From Bacteroidales bacterium (lineage in GTDB: Bacteria; Bacteroidota; Bacteroidia; Bacteroidales; P3): a stretch of 64,000 nt of DNA. Positions 3,016 to 44,666 of this stretch are shown piece by piece. The position numbers and the translations under genes are program-made. Numbering within the stretch: the first letter of the stretch is position 1; each line of letters begins with the position of its first letter. The stretch spans positions 89,750 through 153,749 of the forward strand of contig JAFSPS010000008.1 of assembly GCA_017451385.1 (NCBI GenBank). The letters run 5' to 3'. Below the pieces are notes generated by a model that was not told the origin of the DNA, did not search any database, and saw nothing but the letters and a program-made list of their open reading frames with translations.

Positions 3016-3285
3016 AGTGTGATGGGTGAATTGTGATTAGTGAACTGTCAGTGGTGATGAGTGAGGGAGTTCTGTGTTGTTTAATGTGTGATGAGTGATA
3101 ATGGAAGAATGAGTTGTGAAGAATGATAGGAGATGAATGACTGGAGAAGTATGAATAGTGAGTGGTGTTTGGTGCAGTTTGATAGGAGATGAGTGTGTGG
3201 TGATATATAAAGATTGAGGAGTGGTGGTAGATGAGTGGTGGTGGTGTGTGTGAGGATGAGAGGGTGAGTTAGAGAAAGGATATAT
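3016..3285. repeat. cytosine-depleted G/T/A low-complexity tract (GATGAGTG / GGTGGTG / GATAGGAGATGA words)
   Basis: Only 5 C in 270 nt (positions 3045, 3049, 3072, 3141, 3175) and none in 3176-3285. The word GATAGGAGATGA occurs twice. It is non-coding; the antisense ORF 3081..3458 is a low-complexity artefact. Confidence 0.8.
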
Positions 3286-15118: not shown

Positions 15119-15151
15119 ATTGCGTACTATGTTCTTCTTAAGTTTGATGTC

Positions 15152-15459
15152 TGAGTAGTTATTAGGATTGTTGGATTATGAGATTGTTAAGATTAGTAAG
15201 ATTGTTAAGATTAGTAAGATTTTGAGATTTTAAGATTAGTTAGATTTTAGGATTATGAGATTTTAAGATTTTTAGATTTTAGGATTAGTTAGATTTTAGG
15301 ATTATGAGATTTTAAGATTAGTAAGATTATGAGATTTTAAGATTAGTAAGATTTTAGGATTAGTAAGATTATGAGATTAGTAAGATTATGAGATTTTAAG
15401 ATTTTGAGATTATTGAGATTATGAGATTAGTATGAGTTTGAGATTATGAGATTTGATAT
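15152..15459. repeat. cytosine-free tandem array of GATT-phased 8/9-mers (~37 units)
   Basis: No C on the + strand for 308 nt. Units are GATTTTAA, GATTTTGA, GATTTTAG, GATTATGA (8-mers) and GATTAGTAA, GATTGTTAA, GATTAGTTA (9-mers), arranged head to tail. It lies between murC and ftsQ. Confidence 0.95.
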
Positions 15460-15610
15460 CTGTTTGTTTATTCTATTTTTTTTTGTGCTGCCCCTACGGG
15501 TTATTTGTTGAAGTCTTATTATTCTTCCTATCTGTTCTTAGCTCTTATTGTCTTGTCATCTTCTTATTCTAATCCATTCTAATCATCTGATTCTTCTTAT
15601 CTGTTATTAT

Positions 15611-16978
15611 CTATTTCGAGTTTAATAGTTTTTCTTCTATTGTTGGCACCAGTCGGTCGATGTCGCCAGCGCCGAGAGTCATCAGCACGTCGCAGTCTAT
15701 CTCTGTCACATGTTGTATGAGTTGCTCTTTGGAGTAGAGACGCCTGTGAGAGGAGGTGATGTTGTCTAATATCAGTAGCGAAGATACGCCGGCTATGGGT
15801 TCTTCGCGTGCGGGGTATATGTCGAGCAGCGTCACATCGTCGAGGGCAGACAAAGAGGTAGCAAACTCGCGGTAGAAATCGGCGGTGCGGCTGTATAGGT
15901 GTGGCTGAAAGATGCCGGCGATGCGCTTGTTGGGATAGAGCTGTCGCGCGGAGTCTATGGCGGCAGCCAGTTCGCGAGGGTGGTGAGCGTAGTCATCAAT
16001 ATAGATGATGTGGCTGTTGCACACGCGGTAGTCGAAGCGGCGGCGTATGCCACTAAAGTGTGCCATGCCGCGGCGGATGGCATCGGCATCGGCGCCGCAG
16101 GCTATCGCTACGGCTATGGCGGCGACGGCGTTCTCAATGTTGTAGGGTGCCGACTGAAGGTATATGTCGTTTATGGTAAGATGGTTGTCGGTATAGTCAA
16201 AGCGTATTCCATGTTGCTCGATGCGTATGTTGCTGGCATGATGTGTGGCGTTGCTTGCTTTGCCGCTATAGCAGGAGGCATGGCCGTTGGAGATGCGCTG
16301 TAGTACGAACGATTGGTGTGCTGCGAGGAGCGATGCGTTGCTCTGTATGAATATATGCCCGTCTTCGTCCGTCTGACTGGCAAACTGGTCGAAGGCCTCC
16401 AGCAGGTTGGCGTGGGTGCCATAGATGTCGAGATGGTCGGCATCGGTGGAGGTGATGACGGAGAGGTAGGGGTGCAGATGGAGGAAGGAGCGGTCATACT
16501 CGTCGGCTTCAACGACAACATATTTACTGCCGGTCTGACATAGCATATTGCTGTCAAGATTCTTGTGTATGCCGCCGAGGAAGGCATCCACCGCTATGCC
16601 AGCCTCCTGAAGCAGGGTGACAATCATGCCCGAGGTGGTGGTCTTGCCGTGGCTGCCGGCTACGGCTATGCAGCGTTTGCCGCGCGTCAGCTCGCCCAGC
16701 ATCTGTGAACGTTTCACAATCTTCACTCCGCGTGCCTCCATGTGTCTGTAAACCTCTGTGGTGCGTGGCACGGCAGGGGTGTAGATGCAGAGGTCTATGT
16801 CGGTGGGTATTTTGGCGGGGTTGTCGTCATAATGCACTACGATGCCCTCATGCTCCAGCTGGTGCGTGAGAGGGCTCTCGGCATGGTCGTAGCCATACAC
16901 GTTGTCGCCACGCTGTTTGAAGTAGCGTGCCAGCGCGCTCATGCCTATCCCTCCTATGCCGATAAAATAGTAGTTCAT
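15611..16978 (-). CDS. murC: UDP-N-acetylmuramate--L-alanine ligase
   Basis: 455 aa with IGIGGIGMSALA and AVAGSHGKTTT, in dcw synteny. Confidence 0.95.
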   Translation of the reverse strand: MNYYFIGIGGIGMSALARYFKQRGDNVYGYDHAESPLTHQLEHEGIVVHYDDNPAKIPTDIDLCIYTPAVPRTTEVYRHMEARGVKIVKRSQMLGELTRGKRCIAVAGSHGKTTTSGMIVTLLQEAGIAVDAFLGGIHKNLDSNMLCQTGSKYVVVEADEYDRSFLHLHPYLSVITSTDADHLDIYGTHANLLEAFDQFASQTDEDGHIFIQSNASLLAAHQSFVLQRISNGHASCYSGKASNATHHASNIRIEQHGIRFDYTDNHLTINDIYLQSAPYNIENAVAAIAVAIACGADADAIRRGMAHFSGIRRRFDYRVCNSHIIYIDDYAHHPRELAAAIDSARQLYPNKRIAGIFQPHLYSRTADFYREFATSLSALDDVTLLDIYPAREEPIAGVSSLLILDNITSSHRRLYSKEQLIQHVTEIDCDVLMTLGAGDIDRLVPTIEEKLLNSK

Positions 16979-31545: not shown

Positions 31546-34500
31546 ATGAAACGAATATTATTATTTCTCGTCATACTGTTTGCCGGCGTAGTTGCTAAGG
31601 CGCAGATGGATGTGTATGACGATTTTGAGCAGGCGACGTTGCAATGGGAAGTTGGTGATGATGATGAGAATGGTGGCAATTGGTCTGTTTTCCAGTTTGA
31701 TGAAGCTGGTATAGCGATGAGTGGTACGGGTGTTGCCGTATCTATCTTAATGCGTTCAGAGACTGGTTATGAGCATACAATGTGGTATGGTACGCATACT
31801 ATGGAAGATGCCAATGCGACGGCGCGACTGTCGTTCAGTATGGCGGCCGTGTCGATGGAGGACGATGAGACGATAGTGTGCGAGGCCAACGCATCGGTGC
31901 AGTTGTATATGGACGATGAGTATGTGGGCGACATAATGTCAATGTCTATTGACCCGATGGACGGATGGTGGTATTTCAGTTACACCTTTGCCGAGATAGC
32001 GCAGGACTTGGGCATAGACATGTCTGGGCAGCACGACTACCGCATAGTGTTCAAAAATGCCACGCCCAACGGTGGCGACTGTGCATTGCTGGTAGATGAC
32101 TATTTCTTCTCGGAGGGTGGCGAATACTCTATTATCCTCAATTCCAACAACGAGGAAAATATGGAGAGCTACCAGATGACGACCAACGAAGGCATCATCA
32201 TGGTGCCTACGGGCGATGAGGTGCCTTTCACCGCGCCGGAAGGCTATTCGTTAGCTTACTGGCTCTATTCGGACGGTGTGAACACCTATAGCGTCATACC
32301 GGGTGACGAGGAAACGATAGGCGAGGATATGACATGGTATGCCATGTGGGGACGGAACTACATGGTGGAATACTATGCCAACGATGATTACAACTATTTT
32401 GAAGAGAGTGCGGTGCAATATGCAGGGCACATTGTGCAGGAGAACATTTTCGAGAGGGAGCACTATACTTTTGTAGGCTGGAACACCGAACTTGACGGTA
32501 GCGGCACCATGTATCAGGTAGGTGACACGATAGATTTGCCCAGCGATGCTGCGACAGACACTATCAACCTCTATGCTCAATGGGAGATGGAACAATATGA
32601 CATCACTATTTCTTTTGACGGTGGTGGTGCTGACGGCGAGATGAGCGATGTGCAGCAAAGTGCTGGTGAGCCGTACAGTGTGCCGGAGTGCGGATATACC
32701 TATGACGGTTATTTGTTTTTGGGCTGGAATACCGAGTATAGCGGTGATGGCGATAGTTACCAGCCTGGGGATATGGCAACATTTGACGAGGATGTGACGC
32801 TCTATGCCCAATGGGCAGAGATTGTCACGATAACCATATCGTTTGACGGCAACGGAGCCGACGAGATAAATATGGATGATGTCTCATTTGAGGTGGGCAA
32901 TAACTACACCGTGCCACAGTTTTCAGGCACGTATGAGGGACATACCTTCATGGGCTGGAATACAGACCCTGATGGCGACGGCACGAGCTATCAGCCAGGT
33001 GAGACTGTAATGTTTACAGAGGATGTGGTGCTCTATGCCCAGTGGCCTGCCATTGTTACCATCATGTTTGACGGCAATGGTGCCGACGAGTTCGAGATGG
33101 AAGATGTGCAGATAGAGTCGATAGCGACATACACGATACCGCAGTTCGGCGGCATATACGATGGACACACATTCATGGGGTGGTGTGAGGATATGTTTGG
33201 CGAGGGCGAGATGTATCAGCCTGGCCAGCAAGTTACGTTCAGCGAGGATGTTACGCTCTATGCTATATGGCCTGCTATGGTTACCATCACGTTTGATGGC
33301 AATGGAGCTGACGAGATAGAGATGGATGACGTAGAAATAGAGACGATAGCGACATTCACGATACCCCCGTTCAGCGGTGCATACGAGGGACACACATTCA
33401 TGGGATGGTGTGAGGATGTGTATGGCGAGGGTGAGATATACCAGCCGGGCCAGCGTGTTACGTTCAGTGAGGATGTTACGCTCTATGCAGTATGGCCTCC
33501 GTATGTTACCATCACGTTCTACGGCAATGGTGCCGACGTGATTTCTATGGACGATGTAACGTATGAAGCCATTGAGCCATATACCATTCCGGCGTTTGTG
33601 GGTTCGTATGAGGGTCATGACTTCCTCGGATGGAATACAGAAAGCACCGGCGACGGTACTACCTATCAGCCTGGGGAGAGCGTTATGTTTAGTGAGAATA
33701 TGGAGCTGTATGCTATCTGGTCAACGACCATCACTATCACGTTTGATGGCAATGGTGCAAGTGGTTTTGAGATGGCAGATGTAGAGCATAATACTGCCGA
33801 GCCATATACGCTTCCGGCGCTGCAAGGTACGTATCAAGGACGAGTATTTATCGGATGGAGCACCGACCCCGATGGTCTTGGCGACAGATATGAGGCTGGC
33901 GAGACGGTTGCACTCACACATGATGTGACATTCTATGCTATATGGTACGAGGAGGCGGTGGCCATAATCCATTTTGACCTCGGCGGTGCACCATACACTA
34001 TGGCCGATACGGTGCATGATGTCAGCAATCCCTACCGGATACCGGCAATGGAATATGAGTACCCGTTCCACATCTTTGCTGGTTGGTTCTGCGAGAACGA
34101 CGAAATGACTTATCAGACGGGCAATTTCGCAACGTTTGGAGTGGGCGATGTGTACCTGAGAGCACTGTGGACAGAGGTCCCGACGGTGCGTATCACCTAC
34201 CATGCTAATCATAGCGATGTGCAAGGCACGATGGAAAACGCTGTTGCGGAGCAATATCATGACTTTGTGTTGCCTCGTGGCGGCTACTATGTTGATGGTT
34301 ATCGCTTTGTGGGATGGTGTACGACTGCAGACGGCAGTGGCGACCTCTTATCGGCAGGAACCACGATACAAGTGCAGGCAGATGACCTTGAATTCTACGC
34401 CATTTGGGAGACTGTGGCTGACCCGTTCACCATCATCTTTGATGCTAATGGTGCGGAGGGTTTCATGCCGCATGTGACAATAGAGAGTGGCGAGGAATAC

Positions 34501-39038: not shown

Positions 39039-39698
39039 ATGAAAAAATATTTATGCTTGCTGTGTATGCTTGGCGTTTTCTCGCTTTCGGACATCACGGC
39101 ACAAGGGCAGACACAGATAGCACTATTGAAATATGGCGGTGGCGGCGATTGGTATGCTAATCCCACGTCGCTCACCAATCTCATAGCATTCTGTAATCAA
39201 GATAAGCAGATGGGGATAGAGCCACAGTATGCTACGGTGGAGGTGGGCAGCAGCGAGCTGTTTAACTACCCTTTTGTTCACATGACGGGGCATGGCAATG
39301 TGGTATTCTCCACGCAGGAGGCACAGAACCTGCGGCGATACCTCATAGGAGGAGGTTTCCTCCACATAGACGACAACTATGGGTTGAAAGCTTTTGTGGT
39401 GCCGCAGATGAAGAAGGTGTTTCCAGAATTGGATTTTGTAGAGCTGCCGTTCTCGCATGGCATTTATCATGAGCAATATGATTTCCCTAACGGGTTACCA
39501 AAGATTCATGAGCATGACAATTTGCCACCTAAGGGCTACGGCTTGATATGGGAGGGACGGCTGGTTTGTTTCTTCTCGTGGGAGTGTGACCTCGGCGACG
39601 GATGGGAGGACCCTGATGTGCATGGAGACAGTCAGGCTACGCGCGTGCGGGCATTAAAAATGGGAGAAAACATAATCTCTTACGCTTTCTCCCATTGA
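39039..39698 (+). CDS. DUF4159 domain-containing exported protein
   Basis: 219 aa with a signal peptide. Motifs LLKYGGGGDWYANPTSLTNL, PFVHMTGHGNVVFS and LRRYLIGGGFLHIDDNYG match my memory of the DUF4159 pattern. Confidence 0.7.
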   Translation: MKKYLCLLCMLGVFSLSDITAQGQTQIALLKYGGGGDWYANPTSLTNLIAFCNQDKQMGIEPQYATVEVGSSELFNYPFVHMTGHGNVVFSTQEAQNLRRYLIGGGFLHIDDNYGLKAFVVPQMKKVFPELDFVELPFSHGIYHEQYDFPNGLPKIHEHDNLPPKGYGLIWEGRLVCFFSWECDLGDGWEDPDVHGDSQATRVRALKMGENIISYAFSH

Positions 39699-39704
39699 TG
39701 AGTC

Positions 39705-39954
39705 GAAGATGGGGATGTTAAGATGTTAGGATGTTAAGATGTTAAGATTTTGAGATTTTAAGATGTTAGGATGTTAAGATTTTAAGATGTTAGGATGTTA
39801 GGATGTTAGGATGTTAAGATGTTAGGATGTTAAGATGTTAGGATGTTAAGATGTTAGGATTTTAAGATTTTGAGATTTTAAGATTTTAAGATGTTGTGAT
39901 TTTAAGATTTTGAGATGTTGTGATTTTAAGATTTTGAGATATTAAGATTTATTT
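39705..39954. repeat. cytosine-free tandem array: 30 in-phase 8-mers, consensus GATKTTAR
   Basis: No C on the + strand for 250 nt. Positions 39714-39953 parse into exactly 30 contiguous 8-nt units (GATGTTAA, GATGTTAG, GATTTTAA, GATTTTGA, GATGTTGT, GATATTAA). GATTTTAA and GATTTTGA are shared with the array at 15152-15459. Confidence 0.95.
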
Positions 39955-40006
39955 CTCCCAATCTGAAAATCCATGCTATTTCCCTAAAAATCTGAATATC
40001 TTATCT

Positions 40007-42193
40007 TTACTTCACTATTGTCATTTCTTCAATGAGGTTGGTGGCGCCAGCATATTTGTCGATGACCCAGAGCATGTAGCGAGCGTCGAGACAGATGCAG
40101 CGTTGCAGGTTCTCCTCGAAGTCGATGTCGCCGCTCATGGCTTCGCCGTTGCCGTCAAAAGCCAGACCTATGAGCTCACCGTTGCCGTTGATGACGGGAG
40201 AGCCACTGTTGCCTCCGGTGATGTCGTTGGTAGTGACGAAGCAGGTGGGCAGTTCGCCTCGTTTGTTGGCATAGCGTCCGAAGTCGCCTTCGTTGTAGAG
40301 TTTTTTAAGGCGTTCGGGTACGATGAACTCGTGGTCGTTGGGGTCTTCTTTCTGCATGACGCCCAGCAGGGTGGTGTAGTAGCGATAGTCAACGCCATCG
40401 GCGGGGCTGTAGGCTTTGACGTTGCCGTAGGTGCAGCGAATGGTGGAGTTGGCATCGGGAGCCATAAGGCGTTTGCCGGAAGCCATCTGCAGCAGACCGT
40501 TGGTGAAGTCGCGCATTCCGCGAGCCATGTCATCGCGCGAGGATTCAGGGATGAGGTTGTTGATTTCTATGTATTTCTCGTAGCTCTGCTCGCCAGCGAT
40601 GTAAATCATGTCTTTGTGCATCTTGTCGATGTCGGGTTTCTTCATGAACTCGTCAAATGCCTCTTTGGTGGCGAAGACCGATTTGTCGAACATTTTGTCC
40701 ACATAATCGTTGAAGTCGCTGAATTTTTTGCCACCTTTCTTGGCTGCGGTGTTCATGAAGTCGGGGCGGTAGCGGCTTTCGAGGTTGGCAAAGACATAGT
40801 TGTAGTAGGATTTCATAATGCGCCGTTCTACGGAGGGCTCATAGTCCTTGTAGAAGTCGGCAGCACGTTGTTTCACCATCTCCAGTTGTGCCATGCGGGT
40901 GTCGTAGTCTTCCTCGCCGAGAGCGCGCTCTATGGCGAGTCCGAGGCGGTAGGCGTTGAATGGCAGCTCGGTGCCGGTGAGCAGGCCTTCAGCCACATAG
41001 AGCATGGCTTTCTGGTAAGGACGGCGTAGGGCATAGGCATCTTCGATGAGTCCGAGGGCTTGTCCGTATTTGGGTTGCTGGGTGCGAGCCCACGCACGGT
41101 AATCGCTCTCAAGGTCTTGTTTCAGCTGCATGGTGTTCAGAGCTTTGAGGGCCTTGTTCTGCTCTGCGGTGTATTTCCAGTAGTTGGAGCAGTTGGCATA
41201 TTTGGAGGCATACTTGATGCGTGTGCTCTGGCTGGCTTGCATTTCTTCGCGCAGTATCTCAATTTTGATGTCGCGCAGTTCGTGAGTCAGTTTGTTGGTG
41301 ATGTCGGTGGTCTCTTTGAGGCCGTAGGAGGTGAGGAAACGGTCGGTGGTGCCGGGGAAACCGAGGACCATGGCAAAATCGCCGTCGTTCAGTTCGCGGA
41401 TGCTGACAGGCAGGTGGTGCTTGGGGTGCAGCGGCACGTTGCTGGCATTGTACTCGGCAGGGCTGCCGTCGGGGTTGGCATAGATGCGGAACATGGAGAA
41501 GTCGCAGGTGTGGCGCGGCCATGACCAGTTGTCAGCATCGCCGCCGAAGTTGCCCATGCTTGAAGGCGGAGCACCCACGAGGCGCACATCCTTGTAGATG
41601 ACATGCACGAAGAGGAAGAACTGGTTGCCTTGGAACATGGGTTTGACCATAGCGTCGTAGTAGGTGCCGCGTTTTGCCTCGTCGGCTATTTTGGTGCAAA
41701 TCTCTTTGATGGCAGCATTGCGGTCGGCCTCGCTCATCTCGTCGCTGAGTTCGCGGTTGACGCGGTCGCTAACGTCCTCCATGCGGATGAGGATGGAGGC
41801 AGTGAGGCCTGGGTTGGGGAGTTCCTCATTCTTGCTGTATGCCCAGAAGCCGTCGCGCAGATAGTCGTGCTCGACAGTGGAGTGCTCCTGCAGCTTGCCG
41901 TAGCCGCAATGGTGGTTGGTGGTGATGAGGCCTTGGTCGGAGATAATCTCGCCAGTGCAGAAATGGGCAAAGGGGCGCCCATTGTTGCCCAGACCGACAA
42001 TGGCATCTTTGATACAGCTGCTGTTGACGCTGTAGATGTCTTCGGGGCTAAGTTTGAAGCCTTGTTTTTTCATGTCGTTGTAGTTCTTGCCTATCAGCGA
42101 CAGCAGCCACATACCCTCGTCGGCGCGCAAGGCCGTGGGCAACAGCATGGCGATGCTCATAAAGAGCGCGAAAAAGAATGTTTTTCTTGTCAT
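40007..42193 (-). CDS. S46 family dipeptidyl-peptidase (DPP7/DPP11-like)
   Basis: 728 aa with a signal peptide followed by ADEGMWLL. It has a TTNHHC His region and a TGGNSGSPV Ser motif. Confidence 0.9.
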   Translation of the reverse strand: MTRKTFFFALFMSIAMLLPTALRADEGMWLLSLIGKNYNDMKKQGFKLSPEDIYSVNSSCIKDAIVGLGNNGRPFAHFCTGEIISDQGLITTNHHCGYGKLQEHSTVEHDYLRDGFWAYSKNEELPNPGLTASILIRMEDVSDRVNRELSDEMSEADRNAAIKEICTKIADEAKRGTYYDAMVKPMFQGNQFFLFVHVIYKDVRLVGAPPSSMGNFGGDADNWSWPRHTCDFSMFRIYANPDGSPAEYNASNVPLHPKHHLPVSIRELNDGDFAMVLGFPGTTDRFLTSYGLKETTDITNKLTHELRDIKIEILREEMQASQSTRIKYASKYANCSNYWKYTAEQNKALKALNTMQLKQDLESDYRAWARTQQPKYGQALGLIEDAYALRRPYQKAMLYVAEGLLTGTELPFNAYRLGLAIERALGEEDYDTRMAQLEMVKQRAADFYKDYEPSVERRIMKSYYNYVFANLESRYRPDFMNTAAKKGGKKFSDFNDYVDKMFDKSVFATKEAFDEFMKKPDIDKMHKDMIYIAGEQSYEKYIEINNLIPESSRDDMARGMRDFTNGLLQMASGKRLMAPDANSTIRCTYGNVKAYSPADGVDYRYYTTLLGVMQKEDPNDHEFIVPERLKKLYNEGDFGRYANKRGELPTCFVTTNDITGGNSGSPVINGNGELIGLAFDGNGEAMSGDIDFEENLQRCICLDARYMLWVIDKYAGATNLIEEMTIVK

Positions 42194-42398: not shown

Positions 42399-44666
42399 TT
42401 AACGCTTCACAATCTTGCGTACGGCAGTGCCTTCGGCGGCGTTGATGCGGAGCATATATACGCCGTTGTTGATACCGTTGAGGTTGATGGTGTTGTCCTC
42501 GGAAGTCATGATGATGCGGCCGGTGAGGTCGAGGAGTTCGAGGCTGCTGATGGTGACACCATTGACGCGGACGAAGCTCTGAGCGGGGTTGGGGTAGATG
42601 CTGATGTTGGCGTTGTTGATGTCGTTGATAGCTGTCGGGCCGGGTTCGGTAATTTTCTCCCAGATGGCGTAGAATGTCATGTCGCGAGTGATGTTGACCT
42701 GAGAGGTTATAACATTACCGTCGGGGGTTTGAGACCAACCGATGAAGCGATAGCCGTCGCGGGTGAAGAGGCAGTTTTGTGAGGTGGGAGAGAACCAGTT
42801 GTCGCCGTTGGCGATGTAGAAATATATGGGGCCCATAGTGCCTTGACCGCCGTTGGCATCAAATCTTACTGTCCAAACGTTGGGCGTTTCGGGCTCGTTG
42901 GATTCCTCCCAGATGGCGTAGAGTGTCATGTTGCCTTGTACGGTGATTTCGCCGGAGAGGGGATAGCTGTTGGGGGATACTGCCCATCCAACGAAGCGAT
43001 AGCCTGTTCTGGTGAAAGTGCAGGAGATGTTGTGTACGTTGAGGTAGGGGTCGTCTTGGCTGACGGTGATGGGGGCCATAGAGCCTTGACCGCCATTAGC
43101 GTTGAATGAGATGGTGAACACCTCGGCTTGAGGATTTTGGTCTTCCACCCAGATGGCGTAGAGCGTCATGTCGCCCTGTACGGTGATTTCGCCGGAGAGT
43201 GGGTAGCTGTTGGGAGTGGTAGCCCAGCCGGCGAACTGATAGCCCGCTCTGGTGAAAGTGCAGGAGATGTTGTGTACGTTGAGGTAGGGGTCGTCTTGGC
43301 TGACGGTGATGGGGGCCATAGAGCCTTGACCGCCATTAGCGTTGAATGAGATGGTGAACACCTCGGCTTGAGGATTCTGGTCTTCCACCCAGATGGCGTA
43401 GAGCGTCATGTCGCCCTGTACAGTGATTTCGCCGGAGAGTGGGTAGCTGTTGGGAGTGGTAGCCCAGCCGGCGAACTGATAGCCCGCTCTGGTGAAGGTG
43501 CAGGAGATGTTGTGTACGTTGAGGTAGGGGTCGTCTTGGCTGATGGTGATGGGGGCCATAGTGCCCTGGCCACCATTGGCGTTGAAGGAGATGGTGAACA
43601 CTTCTTCTTCTGCTGTGGCATCTTCCCAGATAGCGTAGAGTGTGATGCCTTCGCTTAATTCATTTTCCTGGTCAATAGAAATAACTTCTCCAGGATTTAC
43701 AGTAATACCTATGCCATTGACATCGGTATTCCATGATTTGAACTGTTTGCCAGCGGGAGGGTTGTAGGTGCAAGCGAGAGTGACGTGGGGCTGGAAGTTG
43801 TAATAGGCTATGGAAGGAGCGATGGTGCCAGAGCCACCATTGGCGACATAAGTGATGGTGTAAGGTCTGAGCTCTGAGGTGGTATGACAATATTGTGCGA
43901 AGAAGGCGTCGTGGTCTAATTGGTAATAGCCTCTCTCGGAGATGCTGATATTATTGTATTCGAGGTTCCCGTTGGATGAGACATATTCATCCCAGCTCAC
44001 AAAGGTTTTGCCGGAGGGTACAGAAAATCTGGTTGCAGTGGGGAAGGTGAGATATCCGCCTGGCTCGGTAACCAGGTCGAAAGAGTCTTCATTTTCATCT
44101 TCTGGTATGAAAGTGACGAAATAGGCGTCGGAACGTTTGCGAATAGTTACATCATCAAGAATGAGGTAGCCGCCGGAGGAAAGCTCTTTGCTCACCCAGC
44201 CGAAACAAACTGTTGCGCTGGAGGTTAAAGCAGAGAGTTCTTGCAGTTGATTGAAATTGACAGTCATAGCTCTCCAACCATCGGAAGAAGAGATAGCGTT
44301 TAGGGTGTGTAACGTCGGATTACCATTGACAACGACCATCAGTTGCATGGTGGCAGATACTGAGGCTCCCTGCGTTTCGGGTACTACGATTTGGTAAAAT
44401 CTTAAGGAGCCAGAGGTGATGTCCTCTGGAGCGATTTGGATTGTGGGAGAGTAGATGGCGACGTTAGCGACTGTGGTGTAGGCGCAGAAGTCGTCTTCGT
44501 ACAAAACTTCGTCAATGTCCCAGTTGACATTGTTCTGTGGTGCATCTGTGGTCCATCCTGTAACGTCACTGAAATCACATCTGTACGCATCCTCAGTGAT
44601 GTCGACTTGTGCAAACATTGACCAGCTGAAAAGCAGAGCCAATGCAAATGATAATAATTTTTTCAT
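42399..44666 (-). CDS. T9SS-sorted surface protein with Listeria-Bacteroides repeats (paralogue A)
   Basis: 755 aa with signal MKKLLSFALALLFSWSMFAQ, an N-terminal beta-rich module and 5-6 LBR repeats including three near-identical 80-aa copies. The CTD is ISIYPNPAQSFVRV...NNGVYMLRINAAEGTAVRKIVKR. Confidence 0.9.
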   Translation of the reverse strand: MKKLLSFALALLFSWSMFAQVDITEDAYRCDFSDVTGWTTDAPQNNVNWDIDEVLYEDDFCAYTTVANVAIYSPTIQIAPEDITSGSLRFYQIVVPETQGASVSATMQLMVVVNGNPTLHTLNAISSSDGWRAMTVNFNQLQELSALTSSATVCFGWVSKELSSGGYLILDDVTIRKRSDAYFVTFIPEDENEDSFDLVTEPGGYLTFPTATRFSVPSGKTFVSWDEYVSSNGNLEYNNISISERGYYQLDHDAFFAQYCHTTSELRPYTITYVANGGSGTIAPSIAYYNFQPHVTLACTYNPPAGKQFKSWNTDVNGIGITVNPGEVISIDQENELSEGITLYAIWEDATAEEEVFTISFNANGGQGTMAPITISQDDPYLNVHNISCTFTRAGYQFAGWATTPNSYPLSGEITVQGDMTLYAIWVEDQNPQAEVFTISFNANGGQGSMAPITVSQDDPYLNVHNISCTFTRAGYQFAGWATTPNSYPLSGEITVQGDMTLYAIWVEDQNPQAEVFTISFNANGGQGSMAPITVSQDDPYLNVHNISCTFTRTGYRFVGWAVSPNSYPLSGEITVQGNMTLYAIWEESNEPETPNVWTVRFDANGGQGTMGPIYFYIANGDNWFSPTSQNCLFTRDGYRFIGWSQTPDGNVITSQVNITRDMTFYAIWEKITEPGPTAINDINNANISIYPNPAQSFVRVNGVTISSLELLDLTGRIIMTSEDNTINLNGINNGVYMLRINAAEGTAVRKIVKR
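42890..43610. repeat. three tandem 240-bp intragenic repeats (near-identical)
   Basis: Lines 43081-43140 and 43321-43380 differ by 1 nt, giving a period of exactly 240 bp. Copies ~43130-43370 and ~43370-43610 differ at roughly 10 positions. Copy ~42890-43130 shares an identical ~120-nt half. Confidence 0.9.

Follow-up and report, generated by a model that had tools for sequence, protein, structure and literature searches.

A hypervariable C-free octanucleotide array between convergent DUF4159 and S46 peptidase genes of a Bacteroidales bacterium, and the gene-relative orientation of similar arrays

Structure and setting of the array

The window analysed here, the whole stretch of 64,000 nucleotides from a Bacteroidales genome, carries an octanucleotide array in the spacer between the stop codons of two convergent genes. 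On the plus strand, the DUF4159 gene (39039–39698; PF13709, E 7e-67) ends with a TGA stop codon (39696–39698) that is followed by a second TGA. On the minus strand, the S46 peptidase gene (40007–42193; PF10459, E 1e-221) has its stop codon 53 nt from the array end. Positions 39714–39953 between them are exactly 30 contiguous in-phase 8-mers of the GATKTTRR type, arranged head-to-tail without spacers. The units are GATGTTAG (8 copies), GATGTTAA (7), GATTTTAA (7), GATTTTGA (4), GATGTTGT (2), GATATTAA (1) and a degenerate last unit, GATTTATT. The first-pass annotation of this DNA had described 30 in-phase 8-mers and a plus strand devoid of C over 250 nt, and both hold. The unit split is matched by Tandem Repeats Finder (39714–39948, period 8, 29.4 copies, 84% matches, 0% indels, score 274), and a base-composition scan places the C-free run of the plus strand, which is the G-free run of the minus strand, at 39705–39954, beginning 7 nt past the DUF4159 stop. 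Directly 3′ of this long C-free arm, a short degenerate inverted copy of the repeat (TCTCCCAATCTGAAAATCC ... CTAAAAATCTGAATATCTTA; 39954–40003, plus strand) forms a G-poor arm, in which segments of 14–20 nt are 80–93% complementary to array units. The local hairpin predicted at the boundary between the array and the inverted arm is weak (−10.6 kcal/mol, z −0.85).

The Pfam assignments bear out the convergent 3′ setting given in the first-pass annotation, and the array, lying between two gene 3′ ends, cannot be a leader, as had also been argued there. The spacer holds no ORF of at least 40 aa and every frame of the array contains stops, which excludes a coding sequence. A phase-variable contingency repeat was rejected as well, since the array lies past both stop codons and no ORF of at least 40 aa overlaps it, and so was a CRISPR array, which has repeats of at least 20 nt with unique spacers instead of 8-nt units without spacers. 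No GC-rich stem-loop followed by a U-tract, the form of an intrinsic terminator, was found in 39698–40007 on either strand, and neither a promoter nor a terminator was detected framing the array. The 64-kb window contains no tRNAs and no matches to Rfam families.

Single-base-free runs of at least 70 nt occur three times in the 64-kb window (3176–3285, 15152–15459 and 39705–39954), each time as the absence of C from the plus strand, and no run of this length lacks A, G or T. The first belongs to a C-poor plus-strand stretch (3018–3285) of degenerate GTGATGAGTGA-like repeats with a period of 14/28, a motif family unlike the 8-mers, which lies past the terminator of a gene for a T9SS-secreted protein and before an ApbE gene. 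The plus strand has a strongly positive GC skew across the window (0.05–0.20 per 8 kb) independent of gene direction, and the minus strand holds most of the window's genes, including the whole dcw cluster.

The second run lies within this cluster. The dcw array (15152–15459) is G-free over 308 nt on the transcribed minus strand and has a mixed 8/9-nt unit, reported by Tandem Repeats Finder as period 17. It was correctly recognized in the first-pass annotation as sharing units and strand polarity with the array at 39714–39953: GATTTTAA occurs in it five times and GATTTTGA twice. The remainder of the block (15460–15610, minus strand) comprises about 100 nt of a degenerate repeat, poor in C and rich in purines, and then a central A-tract segment, so that the order on the minus strand is the murC stop, the purine-rich repeat, the A-tract centre, the 308-nt G-free array and ftsQ. 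The G-free run stops 3 nt before a conserved ATC codon (15148–15146) that opens the FtsQ N-terminus. The distance from the murC stop to this conserved N-terminus is 462 nt in the window and only 3 and 7 nt in relatives with 77% and 62% identical MurC, and the whole block is therefore a lineage-specific insertion. The unit order of the dcw array is polymorphic, as it differs in a strain with a 99% identical MurC, while the alleles at loci with an identical MurC are all identical.

The start of ftsQ in this lineage is itself unusual. There is no ATG, GTG or TTG at the conserved N-terminus (IKLKKNIVRN), and gene callers place the start at a TTG 30 nt downstream of the conserved ATC. Third-codon-position differences, however, mark the ATC-opened stretch as coding (window 15146–15612, minus strand, compared with loci L232 and L233). 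The position of the ATC 3 and 7 nt past the murC stop in two relatives suggests, as far as the sequences go, that ftsQ may be translated by coupling from an AUC start.

Two unit-sharing arrays 24 kb apart could be explained by a mobile element or its remnant, such as a MITE-like element carrying a minisatellite, comparable to BrickBuilt of Porphyromonas gingivalis. Both blocks are insertions relative to other species, and array words recur on contigs that represent other loci of the same metagenomes. Outside the repeats, however, the flanks of the two arrays show no significant similarity, as 8.8% of shuffles score equally well, which disfavours a mobile element with conserved ends. Moreover, no terminal inverted repeats or target-site duplications were seen beyond the repeat units, and no transposase gene adjoins the array among the window's annotated genes. 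We therefore regard this explanation as barely tenable.

The two strands of the arrays differ greatly in their predicted folding. The RNA of the array alone is predicted to fold with −77.5 kcal/mol on the plus strand and 0.0 kcal/mol on the minus strand, and the corresponding values for the two strands of the dcw array are −55.9 and 0.0 kcal/mol. With its flanks, the plus-strand array is predicted to reach −95.3 kcal/mol (z −8.65), and the array remains unpaired on the minus strand. This asymmetry arises because RNA made of G, U and A is able to form G·U and A-U pairs within itself, whereas RNA made of C, U and A is not. The motif is not unusually good at folding, since 16.5% of column-permuted control arrays fold as well, and selection for self-complementarity of the motif was rejected on this ground.

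Turnover among strains and restriction to one lineage

The array was compared over 10 loci from independent assemblies that encode an identical DUF4159 protein, and one further locus found by a metagenome scan. The 30-unit allele of the window recurs identically in five assemblies, and its presence in six independent assemblies rules out an assembly artefact. One locus has a 28-unit allele that lacks a single GATGTTAA-GATGTTAG pair relative to the window, and a second 28-unit allele, also at one locus, has lost the same pair and carries two units changed to GATGGTAG. The unit order differs from that of the window in a 23-unit allele (two loci), a 21-unit allele (one locus) and a 20-unit allele (one locus). 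Thus, the population length polymorphism that the first-pass annotation had proposed to assess exists, with 20, 21, 23, 28 and 30 units accompanying an identical DUF4159 protein. All alleles share a common start anchor, hold the 8-nt phase and are C-free, while unit types and counts vary freely with no conserved order; the number of GATGTTAG units, for instance, ranges from 8 down to 3. The sequence past the 23-unit array (ATTACTAAATGTTATACC...; L133 and L222) is unlike the window from 39954 onwards, and both contigs end about 45 nt later. The right end of this allele marks either the breakpoint of a rearrangement between strains or a false join made in assembly where repeat words are shared.

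The flanks of these alleles hardly differ. The two 28-unit alleles show no flank mismatches over 915 nt upstream and 400 nt downstream, and the flanks of the reshuffled alleles diverge by only about 1%. As the alleles differ despite identical or nearly identical flanks, turnover of the array is much faster than point substitution, and its pattern is characteristic of slipped-strand mispairing or unequal exchange. On the other hand, the variation is constrained in composition. At least 12 substitutions join the 11 unit types across alleles and none of them is to C (P ~0.008, assuming that all substitutions are equally likely), and GAT and TT are invariant in most units.

The array is also restricted to a narrow lineage. 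Behind DUF4159 orthologues with 64–84% protein identity, it is absent at 23 of 23 metagenomic loci, where the downstream gene differs. The lineage itself is poorly sampled: the relatives found through MurC have 99, 77, 65, 63 and 60% identity and are all Bacteroidales. In short-read gut metagenomes of cattle, goats and other animals, contigs break within the array, and some pass from array words into unrelated sequence, which indicates that other loci in these communities also carry similar arrays. Metatranscriptome contigs (Logan) gave thin coverage of the genes, and one unstranded 105-nt contig from a variant strain spans the 3′ boundary of the array.

These observations separate two parts of the dispersed repeat family that the first-pass annotation had proposed. 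Similar arrays do occur at other loci and in many genomes; a single element copied around the genome, on the contrary, is not supported, given the dissimilar flanks, the absence from the nearest other species and the reshuffling among strains. The same annotation had held that arrays absent from relatives and varying at random would be local slippage products. Absence at the relatives' locus and reshuffling of units make the array such a product by that standard, but the variation is not random, since the array stays C-free through the substitutions described above and, as the first-pass annotation did not foresee, array orientation follows the adjacent gene across genomes. What can be regarded as secure is that the array arose locally and recently as a hypervariable octanucleotide VNTR. 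As a product of slippage it is ordinary.

The 30 evenly spaced, near-identical motifs might also be taken for a multi-site binding array or sponge, in which GAUGUUAG / AGGAUG motifs, in RNA or DNA, would titrate a protein in a CsrB-type or iteron-like manner, and UUAGGAUG indeed resembles GGA-type motifs. Such a role is hard to reconcile with the free variation of unit types and counts among alleles, with relatives' loci that lack the array, and with arrays of quite different motifs that hold equivalent positions in other genomes. A sponge RNA of the CsrB/RsmZ family was rejected, given that there is no Rfam match in the window and that neither a promoter nor a terminator belonging to the array was detected. 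We consider a titrating array very improbable. The array is not a mobile element, not a conserved sequence-specific site and not coding.

Orientation of similar arrays relative to genes

An exact-pattern scan for three consecutive GATKTTRR units, with one genome per species, yielded at least 119 stretches; because the pattern fixes the motif family, these counts carry no information on why GAT..TT units recur. Of the 119 stretches listed, 64 are from Bacteroidota, which among the matches listed include Chitinophaga, Longitalea, Saprospiraceae, Flavobacteriales, Crocinitomicaceae, Leyella and Prevotella. Some of the arrays listed lie at contig ends (L117, 1–114; L097; L050), one of them being (ATTTTGGG)n in a MAG labelled 'Streptococcaceae' that came from an algal culture; such arrays are telomere-like and may reflect eukaryotic contamination of the bins. 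Genes around the arrays were called with a simple greedy ORF caller, and the arrays were oriented with the C-free strand on top. Among the matches listed, 124 of 135 arrays are intergenic, and with the C-free strand up the left-hand gene lies within 30 nt of the array in 40 of 81 cases, against 7 of 81 for the right-hand gene.

The polarities at the two ends of genes are opposite. Among the matches listed, the sense strand of arrays within 20 nt of a gene's 3′ end is C-free in 21 cases and G-free in 3, and within 60 nt behind the stop the numbers are 32 and 15, respectively. Up to 20 nt from a start codon the polarity is reversed, with a G-free sense strand in 11 listed matches and a C-free one in 1. 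When only the Bacteroidota in the list are counted, at distances up to 30 nt, a C-free sense strand prevails at 3′ ends (15 versus 2) and a G-free one at start codons (11 versus 1). The loci behind these counts come from many different genomes; in Leyella stercorea DSM 18206, for instance, arrays touch ispG and one other gene (L027, L059). Of 17 abutting ORFs compared with Pfam, 3 are without a match and 14 are genuine genes that match known families over their full length, including UvrA, CobS, PanB, RecF, RpiB, SerA-like proteins, RRF, Pth, IspG, asparaginase and a class I tRNA synthetase. In the start-codon cases the profile alignments begin at residues 2–23, and in five single-domain stop-codon cases they end 3–24 residues short of the C-terminus, so that the called starts and stops are credible.

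The same rule holds at all four junctions in the window. The DUF4159 stop is followed by a C-free sense strand and the S46 stop by a C-poor one, owing to the short inverted arm at 39954–40003; the murC stop is likewise followed by a C-poor sense strand, and a G-free sense strand leads up to the ftsQ start. Non-seeded arrays with strong G/C asymmetry are also predominantly C-poor on the sense strand at gene 3′ ends (25 versus 8) and show no polarity bias at 5′ ends (8 versus 8), with the limitation that some of them are partner arms of seeded arrays and the set is not fully independent.

The first-pass annotation had asked for the orientation of such arrays relative to replication. Array polarity agreed and disagreed with the flanking GC skew almost equally often (52 versus 55 among the matches listed), and replication direction is therefore no explanation.

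Many of the arrays are paired. Among the matches listed, 29 of 96 arrays have a reverse-complement copy scoring at least 12 in their flanks, compared with 4 of 96 in a complement-only control. In 26 of the cases listed this copy is located 3′ of the C-free arm and in 3 it is 5′, and the arm at 39954–40003 has the same handedness. The typical layout consists of a stop codon, a GAT-type array, a GC-rich hairpin, an ATC-type array and the next gene, as in Chitinophaga (L024 and L018), in a Porphyromonadaceae MAG (L047) and at L127. Since an inverted repeat reads alike on both strands, the handedness is a property of the element, and it is equivalent to the rule of gene polarity. At many loci a GC-rich terminator hairpin distinct from the array follows it, so that the array lies between this hairpin and the stop codon. 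Paired arrays are also present at L023, L080 and L087, and the 36-nt arms at L024 are perfect mirror copies, unit variants included.

These counts bear on the view that the arrays are neutral slippage junk without any effect on RNA, whose strand composition and gene polarity would have a mutational origin, for instance damage or repair that differs between the strands. Much of what we observed would suit this view: the array is hypervariable and missing from relatives, its unit order is not conserved, its motif is not optimised for folding, and arrays with 7–8-nt periods are common in such genomes, where short arrays amount to roughly 100 per Mb. Deamination of the non-template strand, however, would predict loss of C from the sense strand at both gene ends, whereas arrays at start codons have a G-free sense strand in 11 of the listed cases against 1. 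The independence of polarity from local GC skew (52 versus 55, matches listed) also argues against it, and a strand-symmetric neutral process does not predict the 26-to-3 excess of inverted partners 3′ of the C-free arm among the matches listed. We therefore consider neutrality rather unlikely, while giving it real weight.

The strand composition raises another possibility, namely that the minus-strand RNA is a loading platform for Rho, which would end the S46 transcript before it becomes antisense to DUF4159; the dcw array would then attenuate read-through from murC into ftsQ. A rut site is a C-rich, G-poor, unstructured stretch of RNA of about 80 nt or more, downstream of a gene on its sense strand. 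The minus strand has this composition downstream of S46: the G-free run covers 250 nt, 240 nt of them in the array, with about 25% C; the array RNA is predicted to fold at 0.0 kcal/mol and begins 53 nt past the S46 stop, so that on the S46 mRNA strand the array would read as G-free and structure-free. Moreover, no intrinsic terminator lies between the DUF4159 and S46 genes, and each array in the window is G-free on the strand of an upstream gene. The composition thus fits Rho loading very well, but the census disfavours it. Among the matches listed, arrays with a G-free sense strand are rare directly behind stop codons (3 versus 21 within 20 nt, 15 versus 32 within 60 nt) and common just before start codons, a position in which the loading of Rho would do harm; a strong site ahead of the essential ftsQ gene would be risky. 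We consider a Rho platform improbable on balance.

Arrays with a period of 7–8 nt are in general common in Bacteroidota. A set of 414 kb of unbiased Bacteroidota metagenomic DNA from DUF4159 neighbourhoods contains 42 short tandem arrays of at least 4 copies, about 100 per Mb for all arrays together, and the period is 7 or 8 in 31 of the 42. Periods of 5, 6 and 9–12 are rare in Bacteroidota intergenic arrays (L134–L212, L014–L132), and a Longitalea locus (L102) has 11 arrays outside the search pattern in 8 kb.

Possible role and comparison with known repeats

The explanation that we favour, and consider somewhat probable as a combined statement, is that the array is a slippage-generated VNTR in the DUF4159 3′ UTR that has been kept only in the orientation tolerated at the RNA level. 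It would have grown in place within the 3′ UTR by slipped-strand mispairing or unequal recombination, with whole 8-nt (and 16-nt) units gained, lost and reshuffled far faster than the flanks mutate. Selection on RNA would then tolerate it in one orientation, C-free on the mRNA of the gene that it touches. Such a C-free RNA would be rich in stop codons, and its A-U and G·U pairing would produce a long imperfect hairpin. The result would be a structured trailer, which should do no harm to the DUF4159 message and may shield the 3′ end of that message. In the opposite orientation the repeat would be a G-free, unstructured stretch, the form seen directly upstream of start codons, as with the dcw array and ftsQ. 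Bacteroidetes initiate translation without Shine-Dalgarno pairing, have fewer AUG triplets than expected near true starts and favour initiation regions free of structure (PMC6847099). A G-free repeat contains no AUG, GUG or UUG and no structure, and is therefore the only kind of expansion that a leader tolerates, whereas its structured and stop-rich complement would be harmless or mildly protective behind a stop codon. We infer from the polarity that selection acts at the RNA level and that the role of the trailer is passive, stabilising or buffering. The separate terminator hairpin beyond many census arrays counts against a trailer function, and a protective role may be redundant; the absence of the array from relatives would fit no function at all.

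A more far-reaching proposal, which we put forward only tentatively, is that the arrays belong to a widespread, Bacteroidota-enriched class of orientation-dependent UTR modules, in which one double-stranded 8-mer repeat would yield either of two RNAs according to the strand that is transcribed: a C-free, stop-rich, wobble-paired and structured trailer form, located directly behind stop codons, and a G-free leader form without start codons or structure, located directly before start codons. The two forms would often be joined as a handed pair, with a 5′ GAT-type arm, a central hairpin and a 3′ ATC-type arm. The leaders could set the choice of start site where ribosomes ignore Shine-Dalgarno sequences, and the paired form could keep a stop codon close to the start codon that follows it. 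Bridging of this kind might explain why the 462-nt insertion between murC and ftsQ is tolerated together with a non-AUG start.

Several known repeats resemble the array in part, cyanobacterial STRRs and the clbR repeat of E. coli most closely. The STRRs of filamentous cyanobacteria are 7-bp intergenic arrays capable of forming hairpins, for which a role in transcript stability or translational coupling has been proposed (PMC2670836). As with STRRs, the array is intergenic, has a short period and shows hairpin potential (plus-strand z −8.65; inverted copy at 39954–40003), and short arrays also occur between co-transcribed genes, periods of 7 and 8 dominating in Bacteroidota (31 of 42). It differs from these heptanucleotide repeats of heterocystous cyanobacteria in its 8-nt unit, in the strict absence of one base from one strand over 250–308 nt, and in its host, which the T9SS, S46 and DUF4159 genes and the MurC relatives mark as Bacteroidales. 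To our knowledge, neither the gene-relative strand polarity nor the handed layout of inverted arms has been described for STRRs. REP/BIME elements of enterobacteria are likewise extragenic, lie after stop codons and between convergent genes, and form 3′ structures at the RNA level. Census arrays resemble them in that many form pairs of inverted arms on either side of a central hairpin. REPs, however, are single imperfect palindromes of 20–40 nt spread by a transposase, whereas the arrays are direct tandem 8-mers that expand in place.

In the colibactin island of E. coli, an octanucleotide VNTR (ACAGATAC, 2–20 copies) upstream of clbR modulates expression about 2-fold through its length (PMC7364221). 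The two repeats have in common the 8-bp unit, the intergenic position, the variation of copy number between isolates and the location in an untranslated part of a transcript. The clbR repeat, however, lies in a 5′ UTR and has a single unit type with all four bases, whereas the array lies in a convergent 3′ region and is C-free with about 7 unit types. BrickBuilt of Porphyromonas gingivalis is reported to be a minisatellite within a MITE, in a Bacteroidales genome with dispersed intergenic tandem repeats that vary between strains (PMC4596501). The arrays share these features of genome and repeats, but the flanks of the two arrays are unrelated here and there is no sign of a MITE. In literature searches on the units and on Bacteroidota 7–8-bp arrays we found no described family.

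Taken alone, the array is a VNTR of strain-typing grade in an uncultured Bacteroidales of the ruminant gut. It can serve as a marker and warns of assembly breaks, but is unsurprising. The pattern behind it matters more: GAT-type arrays have a C-free sense strand behind stops and a G-free sense strand up to starts. If this rule reflects selection, it would offer a sequence-level view of the features barred from UTRs in a phylum whose translation initiation does not use Shine-Dalgarno pairing, and the arrays would be natural, length-variable test objects.

Tandem repetition in the window also extends to coding sequence. Two long in-frame repeats lie in genes for large surface proteins, at 32926–33542 (225 nt, 2.7 copies) and 42903–43601 (240 nt, 2.9 copies). 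The latter is inside a Listeria-Bacteroides repeat / T9SS protein gene at 42399–44666, whose product has called lengths of 755, 675 and 390 aa across strains, with calls that run off the end of the locus or contig.
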